Source: a virus
Lineage: Duplodnaviria; Caudoviricetes
Reading direction: 5' to 3' (one strand)
Virus record (IMG/VR): IMGVR_UViG_3300049137_000091
Location: 1 to 64,000 of that record
DNA length: 64,000 nucleotides
The notes under the pieces are model-generated. The model had not been told where the DNA came from, did no database searches, and saw only the letters and a program-made list of their open reading frames with translations. Below are positions 1 through 64,000 of this stretch, in pieces (within the stretch, counting starts at the first letter, position 1; every line of letters begins with the position of its first letter). The position numbers were made by a program, and so were the translations under genes.

Positions 1-47
1 CATGGTCTTCCTTCTTCCTTGGTCTGCCGGGCCGGTACCCCGTCCCG

Positions 48-65
48 ATGGATTAATTAAACCAT
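48..65 (-). promoter_or_regulatory. 18-bp AT-rich operator/-10 box (ATGGTTTAATTAATCCAT on minus strand)
   Basis: Matches consensus ATGRTTTAAYYAAWYCAT; TTGCGC lies 18 nt upstream of TTTAAT on the minus strand. Confidence 0.8.
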
Positions 66-96
66 CGATGGGGCCGGCCGCGCAACCTCGGACACC

Positions 97-132
97 GCGA
101 AGCCCCGACCCGGTGTGGGTCGGGGGCTTCGC
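97..132. terminator. GAAGCCCCG-family hairpin
   Basis: GCGAAGCCCC...GGGGCTTCGC inverted repeat just after the 144-374 stop. Confidence 0.6.
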
Positions 133-143
133 GGCCGGCGCGG

Positions 144-374
144 TCAGTAGTCGCCGAAGGTGCAGACCGGTCCGCACAGGTCGCGGTCGTGCGGGCCGCC
201 CGGGGCGAAGTGGGCGGCGATCTCACGGCTGGTCGGGTATCCCCCGGTCCGCTCCCGTTCGGTGCGCGGCCGGTTCCAGGTCACCGCCTCGGCGCCGTTC
301 GCCAGTTCGTCGCAGCGCGGACAACCCGCGACCTTGCGGCCGAAGTTCGGCCGGTGCGTGTGCTTCGTCGTCAC
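144..374 (-). CDS. Small Cys/His-rich hypothetical protein (76 aa)
   Basis: GTG start preceded by GAAGAAGGAA and ACCAAGGAA; CPRC and C-terminal CGPVC. Confidence 0.6.
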   Translation of the reverse strand: MTTKHTHRPNFGRKVAGCPRCDELANGAEAVTWNRPRTERERTGGYPTSREIAAHFAPGGPHDRDLCGPVCTFGDY

Positions 375-417
375 GGTTCCTTCTTCCCTCGGTTCCTTGG
401 TCGGTGTTCTTCTCGGG

Positions 418-798
418 TCAGCGGTGCACGACCGGCTTGGACAGGTCGCGGTGCACGACGTCGGCCGGGATGAGCCGGTCACGAAGGGCGTCGCGCACCG
501 CCTCGGCGACGGTGGCCGCCCGGTGCCGCCCGCCGGCGCAGCCGATGGCGAGGACGAACGGCTTGTCCCCGGCCGGGCCGTCCGTAAAGGCGGAGACGGC
601 GCGGGCCAGCGAGCGGACCAGGGCGGGAATGCCGGGCGTGCCGAGCACGGCGTCGCGCACGGCCGCGTCCCGGGCGGTCAGGTTCTTCAGCTCGGGGGAG
701 ACGTGCGGGTCCTTGAAGTGGTAGCGCAGGTCGGCGGTCAGGTGCGCCTCGGGCGGGTCGTCGTGCAGGAAGCCGAAGCTGACGATGGTCACGTTCAT
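418..798 (-). CDS. Stand-alone RapZ/YvcJ C-terminal-domain-like protein
   Basis: VSFGF..., D.R...DP and IGCAGGRHR motifs typical of the RapZ C-terminal domain; no P-loop domain. Confidence 0.75.
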   Translation of the reverse strand: MNVTIVSFGFLHDDPPEAHLTADLRYHFKDPHVSPELKNLTARDAAVRDAVLGTPGIPALVRSLARAVSAFTDGPAGDKPFVLAIGCAGGRHRAATVAEAVRDALRDRLIPADVVHRDLSKPVVHR

Positions 799-825
799 AG
801 GTTCCTCGTTCCGTGGTCGAGCACG

Positions 826-843
826 ATGAATTAACTAAACCAT
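826..843 (-). promoter_or_regulatory. 18-bp AT-rich operator/-10 box
   Basis: ATGGTTTAGTTAATTCAT on minus strand, TTGCGC 17 nt upstream, 28 nt before the 798 start. Confidence 0.8.
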
Positions 844-872
844 ACTAGGGATGACAGCGCAACCTCTGGACG

Positions 873-913
873 CGACGAAGCCCCGGCACCCTTCCGGGCC
901 CGGGGCTTCGTCG
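873..913. terminator. GAAGCCCCG-family hairpin
   Basis: CGACGAAGCCCCG...CGGGGCTTCGTCG after the 921 stop. Confidence 0.65.
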
Positions 914-920
914 TTGTCGC

Positions 921-1328
921 TCACCGCTTGCGGCGGTTGACCTTCGCCGCCGCCTTGGCCTTCGCCTCGTCGGCTCGGGCCTGCGCCTCCACCGAGGCCG
1001 TGAACTGCCGGATCACGAACAACGCGACCAGGCCGACCACGACGACCGCCAGCAGCACGGCCGCGACGATCGCTCCGGCGACGGCGAGCACCGCCACGCA
1101 GAGGGTGACGACGATGCAACCGAGCAGCAGGGTGAGCAGCCACGGCACCACCTTCTCCGCGACGGTCTTCTCGGTGGCCGCCGGCGCCGGGGCGGGGGCC
1201 GGCGCCGGGTAGTGGTGATGCACGTGCAGGTGGACCCCGTCCGGTCCGGCGACGGTGCCCGCCGACGGATTGGCCTTCAGGTACTCGACCATCTCGGCCG
1301 GGACCGGGGCGTGACGCCTTTCCAGCAT
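921..1328 (-). CDS. Membrane protein, Spd-like (spread protein candidate)
   Basis: Pro/Ala linker, long hydrophobic stretch, basic Ala/Lys tail; lies in the TraB cluster; start uncertain (1328 or 1352). Confidence 0.6.
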   Translation of the reverse strand: MLERRHAPVPAEMVEYLKANPSAGTVAGPDGVHLHVHHHYPAPAPAPAPAATEKTVAEKVVPWLLTLLLGCIVVTLCVAVLAVAGAIVAAVLLAVVVVGLVALFVIRQFTASVEAQARADEAKAKAAAKVNRRKR

Positions 1329-1433
1329 CCCTTCCATGGTTCCTTCTTCCATCGTCCGGCCCGCAGGCCGTCACCCCGAATATACCTCAATCATCAACGG
1401 TTGAACCGTCGTTGCAGGTCAGACGTTGGAACG

Positions 1434-1476
1434 CGACGAAACCCCGGGCCGTCGTGCGGCGCCGGGGCTTCGGTCG
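1434..1476. terminator. GAAGCCCCG-family hairpin
   Basis: CGACGAAACCCCG...CGGGGCTTCGGTCG after the 1490 stop. Confidence 0.55.
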
Positions 1477-14474: not shown

Positions 14475-17123
14475 CTACGCCACGAAACGGTCCAGCTTCC
14501 GTGACGCGGTGACGACCGCGAACAGGTCGGACGCCTCACCCATGCGGATGCCGTCCGGCGTCTGCACGCCTGCGTAGGCGAGCAGCCCGAGCAGCTTCGG
14601 CGTGGCCGGCTTGCGCCTCCAGGCGGCCGTCTTCGTCATGTTCAGCGTGCTGCGGTCCTGCGCTTCCGACTCCGCCCAGGCCATCGCCATGCCCAGGTCC
14701 AGCCCGGTGTGCAGCTTTTCCCAGTTGCCCCGGGGCGGGGCGTGGACCACCGACCACTTCTCCGGCTCCTCGTCCGGCCACAGCGCGATCTCGCCGCTGT
14801 CACCGATCGGGATGAACTGGACGCCGCCTGGGGTGCGCAGCCACGAGTACGCGGCCGACCCGGTGAACAGGTCGATTTCCCGGTGCGTCAGCTCGAACGC
14901 AGGCGAGCCGGCCGGGACCTTGCGGCCCGCCTCCTCCGCCTCGCGCACGACGGCTTCGGCCAGCGTCTCGCCGTCCTTCACCTGCCGCACGGCGGCGCCC
15001 GGGTCCAGGTCGATGAGCGTGCACAGCGACCCGCCGGTGCCGCCCAGGATGAGCACCGAGGCGTCCTTCTTCCCGGTCGCCGGCGACGGCCGCAGCACCC
15101 GGCCCACCATCTGGATGAAGAGGGGCTGCGACTTGGTGGGCCGCGCGATGACCGCGCAGTCGGCGAACGGGAAGTCGGCGCCCTCGGTGAGCACCATGCA
15201 GTTGACCAGCGTGCGCACGGAGCCCTCGCGGAACCTGCGGTAGATGTCCAGCCTCTCCTCGCGGGGCGTCCCGCCATGCACGTAGGCCGCGCTCGGCAGG
15301 GCCGCCGCCGTCTCCCGCGCCACCTCGACGGTCGGCGTGAAGACGATCGGCGACCGCCGGTCGGCCGCGTGTTCCTCCAGCACCTTGGCGATGATCTGCG
15401 GGCCGCCTGACTCCATCAGCGCGCGTCCGAGGTCTTTCGCCTGGTAGTCGCCTGCCGTCCGCTTGACGTCGGCCAGGTTCAGGGTGTCCACGTCGATGAT
15501 CCGGGAGCTGACGTCCACCAGGTAGCCACGGGCCATCGCCCACAGCGGGGACCGGGTGTAAACCGCGTCCTCCCAGACACCGCCGAGACCCTGACCGTCG
15601 CCCCGGGCCAGCGTCGCCGTCACCCCGATCGCGCGGGTGCCCGGCATGCCGGAGAAGCACCCGAGCCCGGCCAGGATGTTGCGGTAGGACACGGCCGCCG
15701 CGTGGTGGCACTCGTCCACGATGACCAAGCCGACCGGCCCGTACTTCTCCTGCGAGTCGGCGAGCTGCTGGAAGCGCTTCTCCCGGGCCAGGGTCTGAAC
15801 GGAGCAGACCATGACGTCGGCGTGCACATCGTTGTCCCCGGCCTTGACCTTGCCTGCCGACAGGGCGGGTTCGGTCTGCCGCAGCTTGGCCAGCGTCTGG
15901 TCGGCGAGTTCGTCACGGTGCACGAGGACGACGACGCGCGTCCCCTCCGTCTCGACGTGCTCCACGGCCATGCGGGAGAAGACGACCGTGTTGTGCGTGA
16001 CGATGTGGTGTCGTGTCACCTGATACAGACTGTCCGGGGCCGCCACGCTGATGCAGCGGATCTCCTGGTCCTCTACGCGCTCCACGCCCACAACCGCGCG
16101 CCGGGGTTCGAGCGTCCGGCGCGGGCCGCCGGGGCGGTTCTTGCGCGGCGTGGAGAACGCGGGGGTGTCCGACGGCATGAGGATGTTGACCACGATGTTC
16201 TGGTACGCCTTGCCGTTGGACGGCTGCACCCGGTCGTAGGCCGACACGCTGGCGGTACCTCCCAGGGAGCACACCAGCTCCCGCACGTCCTCCGCCAGAC
16301 GCAGCGACGTCGTGTGGTAGCAGACCGCCCGGCGTTCGGCCCGGCTGGACCCGTCGTTGTCCATGAGGCCGTGCAGCAGGGCGACACGCTGCCGAGTCCC
16401 CGCCTCCAGGTACCGGCGCGGGATGAACTTGTCCGCGCTGTTGACGCACAGGCCCATCGCACGGACGTGTCGCTGCACGCCACGGACGATGAACCGGGGG
16501 CACCACTTCGTCTCGTCTACGGAGACCCGCGTCACCTCGTGCTCCGCCTGAACGCGTTCGGCCACGTGCTCGTCGGGCGTCGTCAGGACGGGGCTCGTGT
16601 GTGACAGGTAGCCGTTGGCGATCAGGGCGCCCAGAGTGTACGGGCCAACAGGGAGTTCCACGTCGGCGGTGACCGTGCCGGACATCGGGATGGACCACCG
16701 GTTGTTCCGGCCGTGCTTCAGCCCGAGGCCCGCGATGTCCGCCGTGGAGAGCGTCCGGACCTCCCCGGCCGTGCGCCGGTGCGCGTAGTCCCGGGCGGTC
16801 CACAGGTGGTCGGCGTCCGTGACGACGGACGACCCGTCCCCGAACGTGACCCGGTACGCGGGTAGCACGCCCCGGTCGTAGACTCCGGTGATCTCGGTGG
16901 GCCGGCCGTTGCTGCCGAAGACGAGGTCCCCGGCCTGGAGGTCGCCCCACTTGCGCAGGCCCTGCGGGGTGGGGATCTCGGTGTCCAGCGGGTGGCCTTT
17001 GCCCATGCCGGTGGCCAGCACGATGGCCGGCCGCTGCATGCCCTCTTTCCACGCGGTGTGCACGGCGTCGATCGCCTCGCGCTGATAGGGCCGCAGCGTG
17101 ATGTGCTCCTGCGCCGGGCTCAT
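14475..17123 (-). CDS. SF2 DEAD/DEAH-type helicase interrupted by an intein
   Basis: LRPYQ, ATGMGK|T, DECHH, TATLARGD, LTEGAD, QMVGR motifs. Confidence 0.9.
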   Translation of the reverse strand: MSPAQEHITLRPYQREAIDAVHTAWKEGMQRPAIVLATGMGKGHPLDTEIPTPQGLRKWGDLQAGDLVFGSNGRPTEITGVYDRGVLPAYRVTFGDGSSVVTDADHLWTARDYAHRRTAGEVRTLSTADIAGLGLKHGRNNRWSIPMSGTVTADVELPVGPYTLGALIANGYLSHTSPVLTTPDEHVAERVQAEHEVTRVSVDETKWCPRFIVRGVQRHVRAMGLCVNSADKFIPRRYLEAGTRQRVALLHGLMDNDGSSRAERRAVCYHTTSLRLAEDVRELVCSLGGTASVSAYDRVQPSNGKAYQNIVVNILMPSDTPAFSTPRKNRPGGPRRTLEPRRAVVGVERVEDQEIRCISVAAPDSLYQVTRHHIVTHNTVVFSRMAVEHVETEGTRVVVLVHRDELADQTLAKLRQTEPALSAGKVKAGDNDVHADVMVCSVQTLAREKRFQQLADSQEKYGPVGLVIVDECHHAAAVSYRNILAGLGCFSGMPGTRAIGVTATLARGDGQGLGGVWEDAVYTRSPLWAMARGYLVDVSSRIIDVDTLNLADVKRTAGDYQAKDLGRALMESGGPQIIAKVLEEHAADRRSPIVFTPTVEVARETAAALPSAAYVHGGTPREERLDIYRRFREGSVRTLVNCMVLTEGADFPFADCAVIARPTKSQPLFIQMVGRVLRPSPATGKKDASVLILGGTGGSLCTLIDLDPGAAVRQVKDGETLAEAVVREAEEAGRKVPAGSPAFELTHREIDLFTGSAAYSWLRTPGGVQFIPIGDSGEIALWPDEEPEKWSVVHAPPRGNWEKLHTGLDLGMAMAWAESEAQDRSTLNMTKTAAWRRKPATPKLLGLLAYAGVQTPDGIRMGEASDLFAVVTASRKLDRFVA
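15990..16997 (-). mobile_element. Class-3-type intein (336 aa) with LAGLIDADG homing endonuclease
   Basis: Starts with Gly after GMGK, ends THN before Thr; W in block B (DHLW), C in block F (IRCISV), T in block G; LGALIANG and LHGLMDNDG motifs. Confidence 0.85.
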
Positions 17124-18786: not shown

Positions 18787-19268
18787 GTCCGGGACCGATC
18801 GTCCAGGCGATCCCGACGAGGATCTACGGCTGTACGTTCCGGTCCCGCACCGAGGCCAAATGGGCGGTGTTCTTCACGCACGCCGGGATCCCCTGGGAGT
18901 TCGAACCGGAGGGTTTCAGCATCGACGGGCGCGGCTACCTCCCCGACTTCCGTATCCGGCCCCACAAGGGCGCTGACCTGGTGTGGATGGAGATAAAGCC
19001 TCCCACCGATACATTCGACGACCCGCGCTGGCAGGGGCTGGTGCAGGGCACGTCGATGATGCTGTTCACGGTCCGTGGGCAGCACCGCCAGGGTGACGTG
19101 TGCGGGCGGGACCACACCGTCCGTGTGTGGCACCCGGACGGCACGGTCGCCGACGTGCACCGCATGTGGACCGGCCCCGAGTACAGCGCGGCATGGGACG
19201 CCGCCAGCTCGTACCGGTTCGACAGCCGGGGCCGGGCGCCAGCACGGAAGGGGTACCGAGCGCGATGA
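18783..19268 (+). CDS. Putative PD-(D/E)XK nuclease-fold protein
   Basis: FRSRTEAKWAVFF, YLPDF, WMEIKP. Confidence 0.65.
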   Translation: MSPGPIVQAIPTRIYGCTFRSRTEAKWAVFFTHAGIPWEFEPEGFSIDGRGYLPDFRIRPHKGADLVWMEIKPPTDTFDDPRWQGLVQGTSMMLFTVRGQHRQGDVCGRDHTVRVWHPDGTVADVHRMWTGPEYSAAWDAASSYRFDSRGRAPARKGYRAR

Positions 19269-19317: not shown

Positions 19318-22300
19318 ATGACCACCTTCGCGGAGCCGGGGGCGCCCAACGGCGCCCCCGCACTCGACCCCGTCCACGTCGCCGAACTGGCCTCCAGCGT
19401 CATCTCCGACGAGGTGCGCGACGCCCGGGGCTACCGGACCCTGTACGGCACCCCCGAGGACCGCGCCCTGCTGCGCGAGGAGTCCATCCCCGTCTGGGCG
19501 TGGCGCGAGGACACCGCGTTCCCCGGCCTGCTCATCCCGACGTATCGGGTGACCGGCGAGCGGATCGGCGCCCAGTTCAAGCCGGGCGTCCCGCAGGCCA
19601 ACGGCGAGAAGACCGTGAAGTACGCAACCCAGGTCGGCCGGAAGCCGCGCCTGGACGTCCCGCCGCCGGTGGCCGACTCGGTGCGCGCCGGCGTGGCCCC
19701 GCTGTGGATCACGGAAGGCGTGAAGAAGGCCGACTCTCTGGCGTCCAAGGGGCTCGCCTGTGTCGCGCTGTCCGGCGTCTACAACTGGCGCAACCGGCTG
19801 GGCACGCTGGGCGACTGGGAGGACATCCCGCTCAAAGACCGCACGATCGTCATCTGCTTCGACTCCGACGCCCGGCACAACCCGATGGTGCTGCGGGCCA
19901 TGCAGCGCCTGGGGGCGTGGCTGGAGTCGAAGCGGGTCGCCGACATCCGGTACCTGATCGTTCCGGAGAAGGTCGGGGACGTCGAGGTCAAGGGGGTGGA
20001 CGACTACTTCCTGGCCGGCGGGACGCTGGAGGGTCTGCGCGACGCAGCCACCACGGAGATGCCCTCCGACAACACGCGGGACGCGGCCTTCAGCGACGCC
20101 GTGCTCGCCGACACGGTGTGCCTGGAGCGGCTGGAAGGCTCGTACAAGTGGGCCTCCGGCATCGGCTGGCGGCGCTGGAACGGCAAGTTCTGGGAGGACG
20201 CCACCGACACCACCGTGCTGGAGGAGATCCGGCGCTGGGCTCTGGAAGGCTTCCAGCGGGTGCTCGACAAGCAGCGCGAGTCGCCCGGCAAGGATCTGCG
20301 CGCCGAGATGGACGGCTGGCGCAGCGTGCTGGCCGCGTCCAAGCTGGGCAACCTGCTGAAGCTGGCCAAGGGCGTCTTGGAGGCGGCGGCGTCCGACTTC
20401 GACCACGACCCGGATGCGCTCAACTGCCAGAACGGCATCCTCAACCTGCGCACCGGCGTGCTGGAACCGCACGACCCGGACCGGCTGATGACGAAAATCT
20501 GTGGCGCCGACTACATCCCGGGCGCCAAGCACCCCGACTGGGACCGGGCGCTGGAGGCCGTCCCGGAGGACGTGCGGGTCTGGTTCCAGCTCCGCATGGG
20601 GCAGGCGATCTCCGGTCACATCCCGCCGGACGACTTGATCCTGTTGCTCCAGGGCGGCGGGTCCAACGGCAAGTCCACCGTCATGGACGCCATCTCCCGC
20701 GCGGCCGGCGAGGCCAACGGCTACCACACCGTGGTCGCCCACCGGGCCCTGCTCGGCAACGCCTCGGACAATCACCCCACCGAGATGATGGACTTCATGG
20801 GCGCCCGCCTCGCGGTGCTGGAGGAGACGCCGGAGGCCAAGCGGCTGGACGTCAACCGGGCGAAGCAGCTCGCCGGCACCAAGTTCATCAAGGCCCGCCG
20901 GATGCGGCAGGACCCGGTCACCTTCGCGACCAGCCACACCCTGGTGATCAACACCAACAACCGGCCGCTGGTGGACGAAACCGATCACGGCACCTGGCGC
21001 CGGCTCGCCCTGCTGTGCTTCCCGTTCACCTTCCGCAAGCCGGGGGAGCCGTGCACGGGACCCAACGACAAGCCGGGTGACGCCACGCTGCGGCAGCGCC
21101 TGGCGACCGACGAGACGGTCCCGGCCGCCGTGCTGGCGTGGCTCGTGGAGGGCGCCAAGGCGTGGTACGCGGCCGGGCAGATCATGCCGCCGCCCCCGAA
21201 GCGGGTGGAGGACGACACGCTGGAGTGGCGCCGCGAGTCCGACCTGGTGCTGTCCTTCATCGGCGACTGCCTCACCTTCGACTGGAACTCTCACGTCACC
21301 ACGAAGGAACTGCACCAGGTCTTCAACAAGTACCTGGAGGAAAAGGGCCACCGGGAGTGGACGGACCGGACGCTCAAATCCCGATTCGGAGGCCACGACG
21401 AGTGCACGCGGAACGGCGTGCAGTGGAAGAAGATCAGGAAGCGCAACGGCCGTTCCACACTCGGCGGACACGAGCCCACGGGCGTCAACTACTACGCGTG
21501 GCTCGGTGTTCGCTTCCAGGACCCGAACGAAGAAGACCAGGTCAGTGGAGGTAGTACCGACGGTGTACCGCCTGTACCGTCTACTCCCTATAACCGTGAA
21601 ATTGACTCCCGTATAGGGGTATACGGAGGAGACGGTACAGGCGGTACAGGCCCGGTACGCACCCCCGGGGCGAACCCGTTCGCGGACGCCGCAGGGGCCG
21701 AAGCGGAAGCCGATCACACCCCCGTCCGCGCGGCCATCCCCGCCCCGTCCCCGGCGCCCGACGACACCCCCGCGCCCCGCCGTGGCGGCGTCGTCGGCTT
21801 CGACCTGGAAGGTCACAGCGCCAAGAGGCTGTTCACCCACACCGACATCGGCGGCGACCCCTACGTCCGTCTGTCCGGCTGGGTGGAGGCCGACGGCACC
21901 GAGGTGATCGCCAACAGCCCCGAGGAGCTGATCCGCCGGCTGGAGGAGGCCGACGAGATCAGCGGCCACAACATCCTCGGCTTCGACCTGCTGGCGCTCG
22001 CCCGCCACCACGGCGCCGACTACGACGCCCTGGCCGCCAAGGCGCTCGACACCTTCCGGTGGGTGCAGGTCATCGACCCGCCCGGCGCCGCCCACCAGAA
22101 GCCGTGGAGCGAAAAGGGCTACTACGGGCTGGACAAGGCCGCGCAGCGTCACGGCATCAACGGCAAGACCGCCGACCTCAAGGCGATGGCCTACCAGTAC
22201 GGGCCCGAGGAGCTGCACGGGAAGAAGCTGACCAAGGACGAGCGCGAAGAGGAGGGCTTCGGCCGCATCCCGGTCAACGAGCTGAAGGTGTACTTCTCCG

Positions 22301-23667
22301 GCGACCTCCAGGCCACCCGTGGACTGAGGGCCGCTCTCGGCACCCCGTCCGACTACGTGCGCCGCGAGATGCGCGTGGCGCACATTCAGCACCGGCCCAC
22401 CCTGACCGGGTGGAAGGTGGACGTGGACGAGCTGAACCGGCTCGCCAGCGAGGAGGCCGAGAAGAAGCGGGCCTCCCTGGAGTGGCTGCACGAGAACTGC
22501 GGCGTCCCGCTGACCAAGTCGGTCGGCAAGGGCCGGGGCAAGAACCGCGTCTTCACCGACGAACCGGTCAAGTCCCCGCTGGCCACCACCGAGGGCCGTG
22601 AAGCCATCATCCGGGCGCTGGCCGACCGGGGCGTGATGCACTACCCGAAGACCGAGTCCGGGATGATCGCGCTCAACAAGGACGCCATGGGCGAGACCAG
22701 TTACATGATGGGCAAGGGGGCGAACGCCAAGACTTTCGGCGCCATGCTCAACCCGAACACCCTGCGTCTGTTCGCCGAGCGCGGCGCCGACGTGGACGCG
22801 CTGCGTGAGATGTGCGGTCACATCGTCACCGTCACCTCCTCGGTGGCCAAGTACGCGGAGATCCAGAAGCACCTGGTGGGCGACCGGGTGCACCCGGAGG
22901 TCGGCGACGTGCAGGGCTCCGGCCGGTGGGCCTACGTCCGCCCGTCCGTCACCAACCTGGGCAAGCGGGGCGGCAAGCACGTCCAGCGCGCCCCGTTCAT
23001 CGCCGACGACGGCGAGCTGCTGATCGCCTTCGACCTGGACCAGGTGGACATGCGGGCCATCGCGGGCCACTGCCAGGACCCGGCGTACATGGCGCTGTTC
23101 CAGCCGGGCCGCGACGCGCACAGCGAGGTCGCCGATGCGGTGTTCGGTCGGCACGACGGCGAGTGGCGTGACAACGCGAAGAAGATCGGTCACGGCTGGA
23201 ACTACGGCATGTCCGTCAAGGGCATCGCCAACGGCGGCGTCGCCCTGGAGCTGGCGCAGAAGTTCGACGACCGGATGAACGAGCAGTTCCCCGGCCTGTG
23301 CGCCTGGCGTCAGGAGGTCCGGGACCGGGCCAAGGCCGGGCAGCTCCTCGACAACGGCTTCGGCCGGCTCATGCGGGCCGACAAGGACCGTGCGTGGACG
23401 CAGGCCCCGGCGCTGATGGGTCAGGGCGGCGCCCGGGACATCATGTGCACGGCCCTTCTGCGCCTGGTGGACATGCTGCCGGAGGCTCTGGGCTGGCTGC
23501 GCGTCGTCGTGCACGACGAGATCGTCCTGTCCGTCCCCGAGCACATGGTGGACGGCGTCACGGAGATGATCGTCAACGAGGCGTTCAACTTCGAGTTCAA
23601 GGGCGTGCCGATCACGGCGGGCGCGTCCAAGGCGGCCCGCACGTGGGCGGGTTGCTACGAGAAGTGA
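19318..23667 (+). CDS. Fused Toprim (DUF3854-like) primase / D5-type SF3 helicase / family A DNA polymerase (1449 aa)
   Basis: ITEGVKKAD and CFDSD; D5_N (NGILNL); GGGSNGKST; exo FDLE and GHNILGFDL; PolA motifs DLDQVDMR, RDNAKKIGHGWNYG, VHDEIV; one uninterrupted frame. Confidence 0.9.
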   Translation: MTTFAEPGAPNGAPALDPVHVAELASSVISDEVRDARGYRTLYGTPEDRALLREESIPVWAWREDTAFPGLLIPTYRVTGERIGAQFKPGVPQANGEKTVKYATQVGRKPRLDVPPPVADSVRAGVAPLWITEGVKKADSLASKGLACVALSGVYNWRNRLGTLGDWEDIPLKDRTIVICFDSDARHNPMVLRAMQRLGAWLESKRVADIRYLIVPEKVGDVEVKGVDDYFLAGGTLEGLRDAATTEMPSDNTRDAAFSDAVLADTVCLERLEGSYKWASGIGWRRWNGKFWEDATDTTVLEEIRRWALEGFQRVLDKQRESPGKDLRAEMDGWRSVLAASKLGNLLKLAKGVLEAAASDFDHDPDALNCQNGILNLRTGVLEPHDPDRLMTKICGADYIPGAKHPDWDRALEAVPEDVRVWFQLRMGQAISGHIPPDDLILLLQGGGSNGKSTVMDAISRAAGEANGYHTVVAHRALLGNASDNHPTEMMDFMGARLAVLEETPEAKRLDVNRAKQLAGTKFIKARRMRQDPVTFATSHTLVINTNNRPLVDETDHGTWRRLALLCFPFTFRKPGEPCTGPNDKPGDATLRQRLATDETVPAAVLAWLVEGAKAWYAAGQIMPPPPKRVEDDTLEWRRESDLVLSFIGDCLTFDWNSHVTTKELHQVFNKYLEEKGHREWTDRTLKSRFGGHDECTRNGVQWKKIRKRNGRSTLGGHEPTGVNYYAWLGVRFQDPNEEDQVSGGSTDGVPPVPSTPYNREIDSRIGVYGGDGTGGTGPVRTPGANPFADAAGAEAEADHTPVRAAIPAPSPAPDDTPAPRRGGVVGFDLEGHSAKRLFTHTDIGGDPYVRLSGWVEADGTEVIANSPEELIRRLEEADEISGHNILGFDLLALARHHGADYDALAAKALDTFRWVQVIDPPGAAHQKPWSEKGYYGLDKAAQRHGINGKTADLKAMAYQYGPEELHGKKLTKDEREEEGFGRIPVNELKVYFSGDLQATRGLRAALGTPSDYVRREMRVAHIQHRPTLTGWKVDVDELNRLASEEAEKKRASLEWLHENCGVPLTKSVGKGRGKNRVFTDEPVKSPLATTEGREAIIRALADRGVMHYPKTESGMIALNKDAMGETSYMMGKGANAKTFGAMLNPNTLRLFAERGADVDALREMCGHIVTVTSSVAKYAEIQKHLVGDRVHPEVGDVQGSGRWAYVRPSVTNLGKRGGKHVQRAPFIADDGELLIAFDLDQVDMRAIAGHCQDPAYMALFQPGRDAHSEVADAVFGRHDGEWRDNAKKIGHGWNYGMSVKGIANGGVALELAQKFDDRMNEQFPGLCAWRQEVRDRAKAGQLLDNGFGRLMRADKDRAWTQAPALMGQGGARDIMCTALLRLVDMLPEALGWLRVVVHDEIVLSVPEHMVDGVTEMIVNEAFNFEFKGVPITAGASKAARTWAGCYEK
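21553..21660. other. Origin-like element inside the replicase gene
   Basis: Inward-facing GTACC/GGTAC repeats around an AT-richer core; near-copy at 63821-63927. Confidence 0.6.
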
Positions 23668-26909: not shown

Positions 26910-26973
26910 CCGGAATGATCATGATGCGATCCGGTCTTAACATCGCCGCACCCGAGACATGGAGGGTGCGGCG

Positions 26974-28581
26974 ATGCCCGTTCACGCCGGGACCATGGCG
27001 GTCCCCCTGGAAGACCTCACCCCGTTCCCCGGCAACGCACGCCGGGGCAACGTGGACCTGATCCTCGACTCGCTGCGGACCAACGGGCAGTACAAGCCGC
27101 TGGTGGTGCGGCGCCAGGGCGACACCATGACCGTGCTGACCGGCAACCACACGCTTCTCGCGATGCTGCGGCACGAGGAGAACGACCGGGACGGCTGCCC
27201 CGACTGGGAGCTGGCCAACAACCGCCCGTGCCAGCTCTGCGTGGACGTGGAGGCCGACGACCCGGCCGCCCTGTCCCACGTCATCGAGTGCGACGACGCC
27301 ACCGCCGCCAGGATCAACCTGGTGGACAACCGGGCGGCCGACGTCGGCACCTACGACGAGGAGGCCCTGGCCGCCATCGTCGCCTCCCTGGACGGCGATC
27401 TGGTCGGCACCGGGTTCGGCATCAGCGAGGCCGAGATGTTCGAAGCAGGTCTGCTGGACTCGCCGACGGCGGCGGACGACGTCGCCAGCGAGCAGGGAGC
27501 GGAGTCGGCCGGCGATGAGGTCCCGGAGGCCCGCCCGTCCCTGGCCGACCGGTTTCTGATCCCGCCGTTCGACGTCCTCGACGCTCGCTCCGGCTGGTGG
27601 CGCACCCGCAAGCGACAGTGGCTCTCCCTGGGCTTCCGATCTGAGGTCGGCCGGGACACCGGCCTGACCTACAACACCGAGCGGGCCGACCCGAACTTCT
27701 ACGCGAAGAAGAACAAGGTGGAGGCGGAGCTGGGCCGGACGTTGACGGCGGCCGAGTTCAAGCGGGACTACTACGTGCGGCCGACCGAGGGGCCTGCGAC
27801 CGGGACGTCCATATTCGACCCGGTGCTCTGCGAACTGGCCTACCGGTGGTTTTCCGCTCCCGACGCCACGGTGCTGGACCCGTTCGCCGGCGGGTCGGTG
27901 CGCGGCCTGGTCGCAGGCATTCTGGGGCGCCGCTACCTCGGCAACGACCTGTCGATGGACCAGGTGACTTCCAACCGTGAGCAGGGCGAGGCGTTCGTCA
28001 AGCGCGGACTGCTGACCGACGACGGCCGCCCGGCGCCGGTGTGGTCGGTCGGGGACTCGTCGGCGTGGGTTCAGACGCTGGAGCCGGAGAGCGCGGACCT
28101 GGTCTTTACCTGTCCGCCGTACTACGGCCTGGAGGTCTACTCCGACGATCCGTCGGACTTGTCCACGATGGGTTACGACGCCTTCGACAAGGTCTACGCC
28201 GAGATCATCGCCGGGGCGGCCCGTGCCCTGCGTCCGGACCGGTTCGCCGTGTTCGTCGTCGGTGATGCCCGGGACGGCAAGGGCCGGCTGCACGACCTGC
28301 GTGGGTCCACGATCCGGGCTGCTGAGGAAGCTGGCCTCACCTACGCCTCCGGCGCCGTCCTAATCACGTCTGTCGGGTCGGCCTCGATCTCAGCAGGACG
28401 TGCGTTCACGAGGACTCGGGTCCTGACGGCCGTGCACCAGGACGTCCTGGTCTTCGCCAAGGGCAACCGGTCGAAGGCGGCGCAGGCGTGCGGGGACGTC
28501 GAGGTACACCTGCCGGACGACGTCGCGGCGGTGCTGGACGAGCCGGCCGCCGACGGCTTGCAGCTCTCCGACCGGCCCTGA
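26974..28581 (+). CDS. ParB/Srx-like N-terminal domain fused to amino (N6A/N4C) DNA methyltransferase
   Basis: PFPGNARRG and LTGNH; VLDPFAGG motif I and FTCPPYY motif IV. Confidence 0.85.
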   Translation: MPVHAGTMAVPLEDLTPFPGNARRGNVDLILDSLRTNGQYKPLVVRRQGDTMTVLTGNHTLLAMLRHEENDRDGCPDWELANNRPCQLCVDVEADDPAALSHVIECDDATAARINLVDNRAADVGTYDEEALAAIVASLDGDLVGTGFGISEAEMFEAGLLDSPTAADDVASEQGAESAGDEVPEARPSLADRFLIPPFDVLDARSGWWRTRKRQWLSLGFRSEVGRDTGLTYNTERADPNFYAKKNKVEAELGRTLTAAEFKRDYYVRPTEGPATGTSIFDPVLCELAYRWFSAPDATVLDPFAGGSVRGLVAGILGRRYLGNDLSMDQVTSNREQGEAFVKRGLLTDDGRPAPVWSVGDSSAWVQTLEPESADLVFTCPPYYGLEVYSDDPSDLSTMGYDAFDKVYAEIIAGAARALRPDRFAVFVVGDARDGKGRLHDLRGSTIRAAEEAGLTYASGAVLITSVGSASISAGRAFTRTRVLTAVHQDVLVFAKGNRSKAAQACGDVEVHLPDDVAAVLDEPAADGLQLSDRP

Positions 28582-29560: not shown

Positions 29561-29639
29561 CCTGCTCGTTCAGTGATTCCGCGCATCGTCGCTACGCTCC
29601 CGCCACCGATCACAGACCACGGAACGGAAGCGGTTCGTC

Positions 29640-30722
29640 ATGCGCGTTTGCCTCACCGGGGCGTCGGGGTTCGTCGGCTCCCACGTCCTGCGCCACCTGC
29701 TCGCCGTCACCGGCTGGGACATCGTCTGCCCGGTGTCGTTCCGTCACCGGGGCGTCCCGGCCCGGATCACGTCGGCGGCCGACGGGATCCCGGACATGTG
29801 GGCCCGGACCGAGATCGTTTACTGGGACATGCGGGCGCCGGCCGACCCGGTGACGCTGGCCGCCCTGGACGGCTGCGAGGTGTTCCTGAACATCGCCGCC
29901 GAATCCCACGTGGACCGGTCCATCGCCGACCCGACGACGTTCGTGCAGAACAACGTGGCCATCATGCTCAACGCGCTGGACGCGGCCCGCCAGGTCGGCC
30001 CCCGGCTGTTCCTCCAGATGTCCACCGACGAGGTCTACGGCCCGGCCGCGCCCGGCGTCGCCCACCGTGAGTGGGACCCGGTCGTCCCGTCCAATCCGTA
30101 CTCGGCGTCCAAGGCGGCGCAAGAGGCGGTCGCCGTCGCCTACTGGCGGACCTACGCGGTGCCTGTTGTCATCACCAACACCATGAACATCATCGGGGAG
30201 ATGCAACACCCCGAGAAATTCCTGCCCATGGTGATCCGCAACCTGCGTGACGGCCGCCCCGTCCCGGTGCACACCGACACCGACGGCACCCCGGGCAGCC
30301 GGCACTACCTACACGCACGCAACCTGGCCGACGCCTGGCTGCACCTGATCCGCCGCTACACCGGTGGGACGGAGACGGTGCGCACCCTGGGCGGCGCCGC
30401 GTACCGCATCGAGCCCGGCCCGCCCATGTACTCGGGCGGCGCCCCGCGCCCGGCCCGGTTCCACATCGCCGGCGAGGAGGAGACCGACAACCGGTCCCTG
30501 GTGCACATGGTCGGCAAGGTGATGGGGCTGGACGCCGGCGAGGTGGACGCCCTGATCAAGCCGGTCAGCTTCCACGCCACCCGGCCCGGCCACGACCTGC
30601 GCTACGCCCTGAACGCCGACGCGATCGCGCGCACCGGGTGGACGGCGCCGCTGCCGCTGCGTGCCTCGCTGGAATCCACCGTGCGCTGGAGCCTGGACCA
30701 CCCGCAGTGGCTGGACCTGTGA
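29640..30722 (+). CDS. rmlB: dTDP-glucose 4,6-dehydratase (RmlB-like)
   Basis: TGASGFVG, AAESHVDRSI, STDEVYG, PSNPYSASKA, HPEKFLP, RPGHDLRYA. Confidence 0.85.
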   Translation: MRVCLTGASGFVGSHVLRHLLAVTGWDIVCPVSFRHRGVPARITSAADGIPDMWARTEIVYWDMRAPADPVTLAALDGCEVFLNIAAESHVDRSIADPTTFVQNNVAIMLNALDAARQVGPRLFLQMSTDEVYGPAAPGVAHREWDPVVPSNPYSASKAAQEAVAVAYWRTYAVPVVITNTMNIIGEMQHPEKFLPMVIRNLRDGRPVPVHTDTDGTPGSRHYLHARNLADAWLHLIRRYTGGTETVRTLGGAAYRIEPGPPMYSGGAPRPARFHIAGEEETDNRSLVHMVGKVMGLDAGEVDALIKPVSFHATRPGHDLRYALNADAIARTGWTAPLPLRASLESTVRWSLDHPQWLDL

Positions 30723-40544: not shown

Positions 40545-40678
40545 TGTTCATCAAACGGGCGGTTGTCGGTGCCAGACGAACGCCGGCGGTCCGTCGGCGA
40601 CCCGCCGGGGCCGCTTGTCCATCTGACCGTTCATCAACCTGATAGCGTTCACCTGCGATCCGAGGCGTTTGCTGAACA
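40545..40678. promoter_or_regulatory. Candidate res site upstream of resolvase
   Basis: TGTTCATCAAACG (40545), CGTTCATCAACC (40628) and inverted CGTTTGCTGAACA (40666). Confidence 0.45.
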
Positions 40679-40693
40679 TGGAGGCAGGAACCT

Positions 40694-41311
40694 ATGCCGC
40701 TTATCGGGCTGGTCCGCGTTTCTACGGACAAACAGAACACCCAGCGACAACACGATGCGCTCGGGCCAATCTGCCTGAAGGTATTCGAGGAAAAGATCAG
40801 CGGCAAGCTGAAGGTGGAAGACCGGCCCGGCCTGTCGGCCGCGCTCGACTACCTGCGCGACGGCGACATGCTCTGCGTGCACGAAGTGGACCGGCTCGGA
40901 CGCAACCTGCTGGAAGGGCTGATCGTCCTCAACGAGCTCTTCGAGCGCGGCGTCCCGGTCAAGGTGCTGGAGGGCATTGCCGCCGGCGAGCACCGCGAGC
41001 GGTCGCTGATCCTCGACCTGGCGCTGGCGCTGGCGGAGGACCGGCGCCGGGACATCGTGCGCAAGACCCGCAGCGGCCTGGACGCGGCGCGCAAGCGCGG
41101 CCGGGTCGGCGGCCGGCGCCCGGTCATGTCGGAGGCCCTGGTGGTGCAGGCGATTGCCCTGCGGGCCGCCGGGATGACGCTGCGGCAGATCCGGCCGCAC
41201 CTGGTCTACAAGACGGCAAGCGGTCAGTCCCGGAACCCGTCGCTGGGCGCCATCTCCCAGGCGCTCCAGGCGTACGACGCCGCCGCGCAGGAGCTGGCGG
41301 AGGCGCGCTGA
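40694..41311 (+). CDS. Small serine recombinase (resolvase/invertase)
   Basis: RVSTDKQ, RPGL, VDRLGRN, GRVGGRRP; 205 aa with no large-integrase domains. Confidence 0.9.
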   Translation: MPLIGLVRVSTDKQNTQRQHDALGPICLKVFEEKISGKLKVEDRPGLSAALDYLRDGDMLCVHEVDRLGRNLLEGLIVLNELFERGVPVKVLEGIAAGEHRERSLILDLALALAEDRRRDIVRKTRSGLDAARKRGRVGGRRPVMSEALVVQAIALRAAGMTLRQIRPHLVYKTASGQSRNPSLGAISQALQAYDAAAQELAEAR

Positions 41312-63736: not shown

Positions 63737-63820
63737 TCCGGGCCCGCGCGGCCTCGAAGACCCGCGAAAGTCGTTAACCACACTAAGGGTTAACCCCGAA
63801 AACGTGCAGGTCGGTGCCCC

Positions 63821-63927
63821 CGTACCGCCTCTGTACCGTCTGTACCGTCATTGACCTATGACGAAAAAATCCCTTACGTATAGGGGTTATACGGAGCACA
63901 CGGTACAGGCGGTACAGCGGCGGTACG
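63821..63927. other. Second copy of the origin-like element, intergenic
   Basis: Shares CGTATAGGGGT(T)ATACGGAG.A.ACGGTACAGGCGGTACAG and upstream CTGTACCGTC with 21553-21660. Confidence 0.6.
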
Positions 63928-63975
63928 CGGCCTCGGACGCTCCGACCGGACCCCGCTGGAGGTGGCCGAAAACCA

Positions 63976-64000
63976 ATGGCTTGGACCGCACCTATGACCG
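63976..64000 (+). CDS. Start of next tail gene (truncated by window edge)
   Basis: GGAGGTGG SD, MAWTAPMT. Confidence 0.5.

Follow-up and report, generated by a model that had tools for sequence, protein, structure and literature searches.

Could a replication origin be translated, so that its repeats serve at the same time as the codons of a linker inside the replicase gene? This question is raised by a locus in a 64,000-nucleotide stretch of viral DNA (positions 1 to 64,000 of IMG/VR record IMGVR_UViG_3300049137_000091; Duplodnaviria, Caudoviricetes), hereafter called the window, which belongs to a virus record of 89,468 bp. On the + strand of the window, an uninterrupted open reading frame (ORF) runs from an ATG at 19318 to a stop at 23667 and encodes a replicase of 1449 amino acids (aa), whose domains are, in order, a DnaG-type primase core, D5_N, a superfamily 3 (SF3) helicase, a winged-helix origin-binding domain of the phage P4 type, a linker, a 3'-5' exonuclease and a family A polymerase (PolA) (Table 1). 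The linker is encoded by a palindromic array of short repeats, or iterons, which is the main subject here.

An earlier note on this DNA had drawn attention to the primase, helicase and polymerase within one frame, and the ORF, the Pfam and PHROG matches and the intact motifs all bear this out. With Pfam matches counted only above the curated cut-offs, Toprim, D5_N, DUF5906, Pox_D5 and DNA_pol_A are all found in the protein. The best explanation of the whole, to which we assign a probability of about 0.58 with the origin mechanism included, is that the replicase belongs to the family of Pas55 from phage phiAsp2, whose members join a P4-alpha-like initiator to a family A polymerase with proofreading, and that its carrier is a ~89-kb Streptomyces tailed phage-plasmid.

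A repeat element in the linker codons

The DNA that encodes the linker is a conserved palindromic iteron element under constraint at the DNA level. It consists of three (T)GTACCG repeats, an AT-richer core of ~50 bp and three inverted CGGTAC(A) repeats, and the core, which holds the hairpin CCGTATA-GGGG-TATACGG, has a GC content of ~50% compared with 70% for the genome. The constraint can be read from the codons. The composition of the ORF is coding-like, with a GC content at third codon positions (GC3) of 0.93, compared with 0.42 for the 36 codons of the element, which form the lowest-GC3 stretch in the gene; the codons GTA (four times), ATA and CCT occur in the element and are absent from the rest of the gene. 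The GC3 of the element is below that of the remaining ORF in 32 of 32 fused loci (mean 0.42 vs. 0.89).

Related loci, 49 in number, were searched with a pattern of two direct 5-mers 9 bp apart, followed ~70 bp on by two inverted copies 9 bp apart. The pattern occurs in the linker at 39 of them and 130-250 bp upstream of the gene at 7 more, and none was found elsewhere in the ~415 kb of these loci. Relatives in which the helicase and the polymerase are split carry the element as well: it is intergenic, between the helicase gene and polA, in L057 and L072, lies in a long helicase tail overlapping the polymerase start in L041 and L043, and is found upstream of the primase-helicase gene in L055. 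The iteron word differs by lineage (TGTACC, GGTACC, GTTACG, ATTACAC, GTTCCG, GGTGGTCC, TAGAC and others), while the layout and the GTTAAC/TATAAC boxes of the core stay constant. Since the word varies within a constant layout, the linker peptides carry periodic motifs that are specific to the lineage, such as VPxVP...GTxGT, VTxVT, GYxSY and ITxIT. In several lineages (L024, L027, L038, L048 and other loci), the arms are flanked by inverted CAAGATC...GATCTTG, which contains GATC and extends the dyad symmetry to ~115 bp.

Downstream of the element, the linker is variable in the alignment of relatives apart from a nearly invariant Pro-Phe pair in a short acidic motif, and the helicase genes of split relatives end in acidic-aromatic tails (DDEDPFK, DDDDFWEL). 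The motif recalls the tail of T7 gp4, which docks on its polymerase, and to judge by its sequence it may serve the polymerase or another partner as a docking peptide.

A second copy half a genome away

The element is not confined to the replicase gene. A second copy, which shares a mean column identity of 82% with the first in one alignment, lies 42.3 kb from it, that is, 0.47 of the 89,468-bp genome. It is situated inside the tail-gene block, in a 780-bp gap (window 63737-64000, on to genome position 64515) that holds no strongly coding ORF. All five complete relatives of 92-98 kb that were tested have exactly two copies per genome, separated by 0.47-0.53 genome lengths, and all three complete relatives of 42-43 kb likewise have two, separated by 0.37-0.40 genome lengths.

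Then, could the element act as RNA? A stable mRNA hairpin that slows ribosomes or attracts RNase III, and in this way sets the helicase-to-polymerase ratio or gives rise to separate products, would agree with the predicted fold of -67.7 kcal/mol (z -5.9), with the perfect stem of 19 bp and with the co-variation of the left and right arms between lineages, and the split relatives show that separate products are viable. However, a hairpin has no need of the 9-bp direct repeat that is kept within each arm in all lineages, and it leaves the conserved unpaired GTTAAC boxes and the central core unexplained. Moreover, the second copy is located in untranslated DNA among tail genes, and in one clade the element is upstream of the gene. 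We regard an RNA function as very unlikely.

The initiator half of the replicase

The domains that precede the linker are those of an initiator. The frame is already open from a GTG at 19075, and homologues align starting at residue 1 of the ATG form, at the head of the primase core. In this core, the Toprim Glu is found in WITEGVKKAD (aa 130-139) and the DxD in CFDSDA (aa 180-185), and E133, D182 and D184 are invariant across 37 sequences. The AlphaFold model of aa 1-270 has a predicted local distance difference test (pLDDT) score of 88.6, with residues 1-11 disordered, and Foldseek with this model retrieves the E. coli DnaG core 1DDE (E 6e-7), T4 gp61, the T7 gp4 primase and Twinkle over ~250-265 alignment columns. 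As modelled, the N-terminus is a DnaG-type primase core with a near full-length fold match, for which primer synthesis is predicted. No Cys/His cluster of a zinc-binding domain stands ahead of the core, either in the sequence or in the model.

The helicase displays Walker A GGGSNGKST (aa 446-454), Walker B LAVLEE (aa 498-503) and motif C LVINTNN (aa 542-548). Together with D5_N and the P-loop core, these place it in the D5/P4-alpha group of SF3, and the C962R primase-helicase of African swine fever virus (ASFV) is matched in sequence to aa 360-673 in the PDB (E 7e-17).

The model of aa 590-735 (pLDDT 91.9) ends in a winged helix, which in VIA-align is most similar to the RFX DNA-binding domain (Z 10.1), followed by the P4 origin-binding domain 1KA8 (Z 7.7, root-mean-square deviation 2.5, 78 aligned) and the C-terminus of ASFV PrimPol (Z 6.2). 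A sequence profile of this region yielded nothing significant against the PDB, and the P4 origin-binding domain was found by fold comparison only. Based on these models, the N-terminal 735 residues are predicted to be a P4-alpha-like initiator-primase-helicase.

The residues of the wing follow the iteron word: lineages with ATTACAC share xV(Y/F)(S/N)P despite lying in different polymerase subclades. Such tracking would fit recognition of the element by this domain, but it is only suggestive, as the two are physical neighbors.

A translated origin of replication?

The element has the layout of an iteron origin, with clustered repeats beside an AT-richer region and linked to an initiator gene, and the P4-type origin-binding fold directly precedes the linker. 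We somewhat favor the view that the linker element is a translated replication origin. By analogy with SV40 (simian virus 40) and papillomavirus, inverted iteron pairs around a meltable core would suit the head-to-head loading of two SF3 hexamers. The winged-helix domain would bind the inverted pairs of 9-bp-spaced iterons, a head-to-head pair of SF3 hexamers would form on the AT-richer core and open it, the DnaG-like domain would lay primers, and the tethered polymerase would extend them, probably with the beta clamp of the phage-plasmid itself.

As for its history, the origin may at first have separated the helicase gene from the polymerase gene, an arrangement that some relatives still show, and later have been read through, so that it would now be translated as a flexible Gly/Pro/Thr/Val linker, a situation resembling ori-lambda inside gene O. 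The split relatives, taken as living intermediates, suggest this course from an intergenic origin to a translated linker. In its full form, the proposal is that an origin has been absorbed into the replicase gene of a widespread family of actinomycete phages and phage-plasmids, that the protein binds and melts the DNA encoding its own hinge, that the linker peptide is a by-product of origin specificity, and that the untranslated second copy makes a two-site system like P4 ori/crr; we give it an even chance. Gene orientation fits an origin and is no proof of it: at ~19 kb, next to the linker copy, the genes diverge, and the point at which they converge, ~69.5 kb, lies past the distal copy (63.9 kb).

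Several points weigh against this reading. Both origin function and binding by the replicase are predicted from sequence. The cumulative GC skew over the 89-kb genome gives no signal of an origin or terminus, and the AT skew mirrors gene orientation only. The core is AT-rich only in relative terms (~50% GC vs. 70%). The arms are perfect inverted repeats, spacers included, so that a cruciform or an mRNA hairpin explains the covariation of left and right equally well, and because the winged-helix domain adjoins the element, their apparent co-variation could be plain co-inheritance. The second copy may be a second origin, an enhancer like P4 crr or a terminus. In addition, the Pas55 locus of phiAsp2 contains no such element in or near the gene, even under relaxed settings.

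Another possibility is a DNA site with a different function or for a different protein: the ParB-like protein might use it as a partition centromere, a helix-turn-helix regulator as an operator, or it might be a site of recombination. That it falls in the linker would then be a tolerated accident. The plasmid-prophage N15 has scattered centromere sites, which the two dispersed inverted-repeat sites recall; the phage-plasmid also encodes a ParB-methyltransferase fusion and a serine recombinase, and at seven loci the element is found just upstream of the gene, in an operator-like position. However, in every lineage it is tied to the primase-helicase gene, be it inside, right after or right before it, while the ParB-like gene is ~5 kb off, and the combination of inverted iteron pairs, an AT-richer core and a neighboring SF3 initiator that has a P4-type origin-binding domain is the classic layout of an origin. 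A different kind of site appears rather unlikely to us.

A protelomerase target site was also considered, prompted by the 'linear' record of plasmid pS1D4-14.2 and by a contig that ends in the element, and was rejected: the element is imperfectly palindromic at its centre, the ORFs scanned include no protelomerase-like gene, and relatives assemble with direct terminal repeats.

Conservation of the fusion

Is the long frame itself reliable, and is it shared? Homologues of 1380-1540 aa, represented by 112 clusters, have the same Pfam set at 46-78% identity, and deep fused clades are found at 38-42% identity. Both halves are present at 48 loci from IMG/VR, genomes and plasmids; at 43 of these they form one stop-free frame, and at five the helicase and polymerase are split. 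Most homologues therefore keep the fusion, a point that the earlier note had proposed to check. The tree of the polymerase domain requires at least four changes between the fused and split states. Among finished records, the nearest is pS1D4-14.2, a 98.8-kb plasmid of Streptomyces sp. S1D4-14, whose fused gene is 75% identical.

Many cultured Streptomyces phages encode the primase and the polymerase in neighboring but separate genes, and a few relatives are split, as would be expected if the long ORF were an assembly or sequencing artefact that joins two neighboring genes. However, more than 100 independent assemblies (NCBI, JGI, ENA and Logan), including the finished plasmid, keep the frame. 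P0126, a seemingly stand-alone polymerase of a close relative, also proved to result from a contig broken inside the palindromic element and not from a split gene. An artefact is thus next to impossible. In that relative (L009, NZ_JBIRHK010000028.1, 92,184 bp, Streptomyces), the last 40 bases end within the element, just beyond the left iterons, and consequently NCBI annotates a separate 'DNA polymerase' (P0126) at the opposite end of the contig; the long inverted repeat appears to break assemblies.

Some homologues are ~360 aa longer, namely P0037, P0065 and P0099 (1806-1816 aa) and the stop-free frame of 1910 codons in L018. P0037 and P0065 have gained a match to Pfam PF14528 (LAGLIDADG) and lost that to DUF5906, which suggests an intein inserted in the P-loop region of the helicase.

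The architecture is not new: Pas55 of Actinoplanes phage phiAsp2 was named as a fusion of SF3 helicase, DnaG primase and PolA in 2016 (Kazlauskas, Krupovic and Venclovas 2016, PMC4889955). We checked Pas55 (1415 aa), which has the same domain order and the same two unusual polymerase residues described below, and the replicase is a further member of this known fusion family. The conserved origin-like repeat element in the linker-coding DNA appears to be undescribed.

An unusual sugar pocket shared by a polymerase clade

The match to PHROG 17 (DNA polymerase) spans aa 822-1448 and hence includes the exonuclease half. In the exonuclease, D829/E831, D890 and Y992/D996 fall on D355/E357, D424 and Y497/D501 of E. 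coli PolA (MAFFT). In the polymerase domain, R1284, K1288 and Y1296 correspond to E. coli R754, K758 and Y766, and D705, Q849, H881, D882 and E883 are kept too. Motifs A and B are located as quoted in the earlier note, and its reading of a His at the E. coli 762 position is upheld by two alignments, HMMER against Taq and MAFFT against E. coli MG1655 PolA, in which H1292 aligns to F667/F762 and D1244 to E615/E710. The usual residues of the sugar pocket, Phe, Tyr or Leu at 762 and the steric-gate Glu at 710, are thus replaced by His and Asp (His762 and Asp710 in E. coli numbering), 762 being a variable position that excludes no protein from the family.

His762 and Asp710 are present in every fused homologue with readable motifs. 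In ~120 unfused PolA (40-75% identity), His762 is also invariant and always accompanied by Asp710, and the pair is found in phiSAJS1 gp56, Frankenweenie gp74 and phiAsp2 Pas55 from cultured phages; in gp44 of mycobacteriophage L5, the residues are the usual Phe and Glu. Since unfused relatives and cultured phages have both residues, they are not linked to the fusion and do not set it apart. The exact motif GHGWNYG occurs on at least 108 IMG/VR contigs. Studies of virioplankton PolA retained only F, L or Y at position 762. No His-762 clade is described in Nasko 2018, Keown 2022 or Czernecki 2023, the reclassification of 2023 discusses no His variant, and a full-text literature search on His762 returned nothing about polymerases. 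The pair therefore appears to mark a sizeable and apparently undescribed clade of actinophage PolA, and as aligned it would represent a remodelled sugar pocket common to the whole clade. A polymerase of the DpoZ (2-aminoadenine) type was rejected, DpoZ being absent from the PDB sequence matches and the described DpoZ clusters differing in motif B.

Is the protein, then, a self-sufficient single-chain replisome, set apart by a His762 that confers unusual selectivity for dideoxynucleotides (ddNTP) or modified deoxynucleotides (dNTP)? A single chain does carry intact motifs for the primase, the helicase, the exonuclease and the polymerase, His762 and Asp710 alter both residues that sandwich the incoming sugar, and the surveys restricted to F, L or Y left the clade unstudied. 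However, the two residues belong equally to the unfused relatives, and no single-stranded DNA-binding protein, ligase or primer-removal enzyme was identified in this analysis. Furthermore, a three-domain DnaN-type clamp, a superfamily 2 (SF2) helicase and a Cas4/RecB-like exonuclease are encoded separately on the same phage-plasmid, and therefore the fused protein alone is no complete replisome; the description as self-sufficient in the earlier note was overstated, and we consider this alternative unlikely.

Other genes of the phage-plasmid

The terminase, portal, major head protein, tape measure and endolysin genes are present. An own beta clamp is unusual company for a family A polymerase. 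As is common for proteins with inteins, the SF2 helicase matches the 'terminase' and 'primase' families of PHROG in its N-terminal part, and it probably contains an intein, judging from its LAGLIDADG_3 match. Epimerase and glycosyltransferase genes similar to those listed in Table 1 are carried by pS1D4-14.2; their products could modify the cell wall or DNA, and a link to the odd polymerase pocket is speculation.

Table 1. Positions of the replicase domains, the two element copies and other genes mentioned in the text. Nucleotides are window positions unless marked as genome positions.
Feature	Nucleotides	Residues (aa)	Strand	Evidence or remark
Whole replicase ORF (primase, helicase, origin-binding domain, linker, exonuclease, PolA)	19318-23667	1-1449	+	Pfam, PHROG, full-length homologues at 46-78% identity
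DnaG-type primase catalytic core	19318-20070	1-250	+	Pfam DUF3854, AlphaFold, Foldseek
DUF3854/Toprim		127-235		Pfam
D5_N (PF08706)	20149-20556	278-413	+	Pfam, E 1.4e-20
SF3 helicase ATPase core	20647-21180		+	Pfam DUF5906, PDB sequence match, motifs
DUF5906 (SF3 P-loop)		444-562		Pfam
Winged-helix domain, phage P4 origin-binding type	21238-21522	~641-735	+	Pfam Pox_D5, model, VIA-align; basic wing KKIRKRNGR
Pox_D5		639-714		Pfam
Origin-like palindromic element in linker codons	21553-21660	746-781	.	Sequence, word positions, codon usage, 39/49 loci
Acidic Pro-Phe motif in linker (NPFAD; DPFA in most relatives)	21673-21687		+	Alignment of relatives
3'-5' proofreading exonuclease	21793-22557		+	Exo I GFDLEG, Exo II HNILGFD, Exo III YFSGD; E. 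coli PolA alignment, PHROG 17 from aa 822
Family A polymerase domain	22558-23664		+	Pfam, Taq and E. coli PolA alignments
DNA_pol_A (PF00476)		1188-1437		Pfam, E 1.5e-28
Motif A DLDQVDMR	23032-23055	1239-1246	+	D1239 = E. coli D705; Asp at E710
Motif B RDNAKKIGHGWNYG	23167-23208	1284-1297	+	His codon 23191-23193 at F762
Motif C VVVHDEIV	23503-23526	1396-1403	+	H881, D882, E883 kept
Second palindromic iteron element copy	63821-63927		.	Sequence, alignment, ORF map
SF2 (ResIII/Helicase_C) helicase	14475-17123		-	LAGLIDADG_3 at aa 246-298
ParB-like N-terminal domain fused to N6/N4 DNA methyltransferase	26941-28581		+	PHROGs 723, 498
NAD-dependent sugar epimerase/dehydratase	29577-30722		+	
Serine recombinase	40676-41311		+	Resolvase N-terminal domain, E 5.6e-28
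Glycosyltransferase	genome 68043-69125		+	
DnaN-type sliding clamp	genome 72411-74081 (L094:12411-14081), outside window		-	All three beta-clamp domains and ~170-aa N-terminal extension

Comparison with known systems

The nearest described protein, phiAsp2 Pas55, shares the domain order in one ORF (1415 aa), the Toprim motif, KAIGHGWNYG and DLSQVDMR with the replicase. However, the polymerase halves are only 38% identical and the primase halves 26%, and Pas55 comes from a 58.6-kb phage, in contrast to the phage-plasmid of ~90 kb here. The phiSAJS1 gp56 and Frankenweenie gp74 polymerases belong to the same PolA clade, with His762/Asp710 and active exonuclease motifs, and a primase-helicase gene lies just upstream in the same orientation, but the genes are separate and the polymerases are ~30-39% identical to the replicase.

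P4 gp-alpha likewise combines a DnaG-type primase, an SF3 helicase and a C-terminal winged-helix origin-binding domain, the fold of 1KA8. P4 has two cis sites, ori and crr, that are bound by alpha, and two separated iteron sites per genome are found here as well, which the replicase may bind. Unlike the replicase, alpha has no polymerase and uses that of the host, and ori is outside the alpha coding sequence; the iteron words differ, as does the palindromic 2+2 layout.

For the position of the element, phage lambda offers the closest parallel in that ori-lambda, with its iterons and AT-rich stretch, is located inside the initiator gene O, in the portion that codes for an interdomain linker. 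The O protein is an initiator only, without helicase, primase or polymerase, whereas the element described here separates the helicase half of the replicase from its polymerase half, and a second copy lies half a genome off.

The apicoplast PREX of Plasmodium also unites a Toprim primase, a hexameric helicase, a 3'-5' exonuclease and a family A polymerase in one chain, and its structure 5DKU is a weak sequence match to the replicase in the PDB. However, the helicase of PREX is of superfamily 4 (the Twinkle/T7 gp4 type), while that of the replicase is SF3 and not DnaB-like, and the PolA of PREX falls in an Aquificae-like cluster with Phe at 762 and is accompanied by no origin-binding domain.

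In SV40 large T antigen and papillomavirus E1, an SF3 initiator helicase recognizes short repeats, arranged as inverted pairs on either side of a region that melts readily, and forms a head-to-head double hexamer. The origin-binding fold of these proteins is an inactivated nuclease instead of a winged helix, no primase or polymerase is fused to them, and the viruses are eukaryotic.

Implications

Two features deserve further pursuit: the origin-like element that is translated as a linker and paired with a distal copy, and the combination of His762 and Asp710 as a signature of the clade. The latter marks a large PolA clade with a His at 762 and an Asp at the steric gate, overlooked by surveys that kept only F, L or Y, and provides a new natural variant at the most studied selectivity position in family A polymerases. 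If the translated origin is true, the compact initiator-primase-helicase-polymerase and its cognate origin of 110 bp would be a candidate minimal replication module for Streptomyces vectors and in vitro replication. It would also be a clear natural case of a cis-acting DNA element that dictates a protein linker, and the surviving intermediates, with the origin between the genes, in the helicase tail or in the full fusion, would make the co-evolution of origin and initiator and the process of gene fusion directly testable in these phages.

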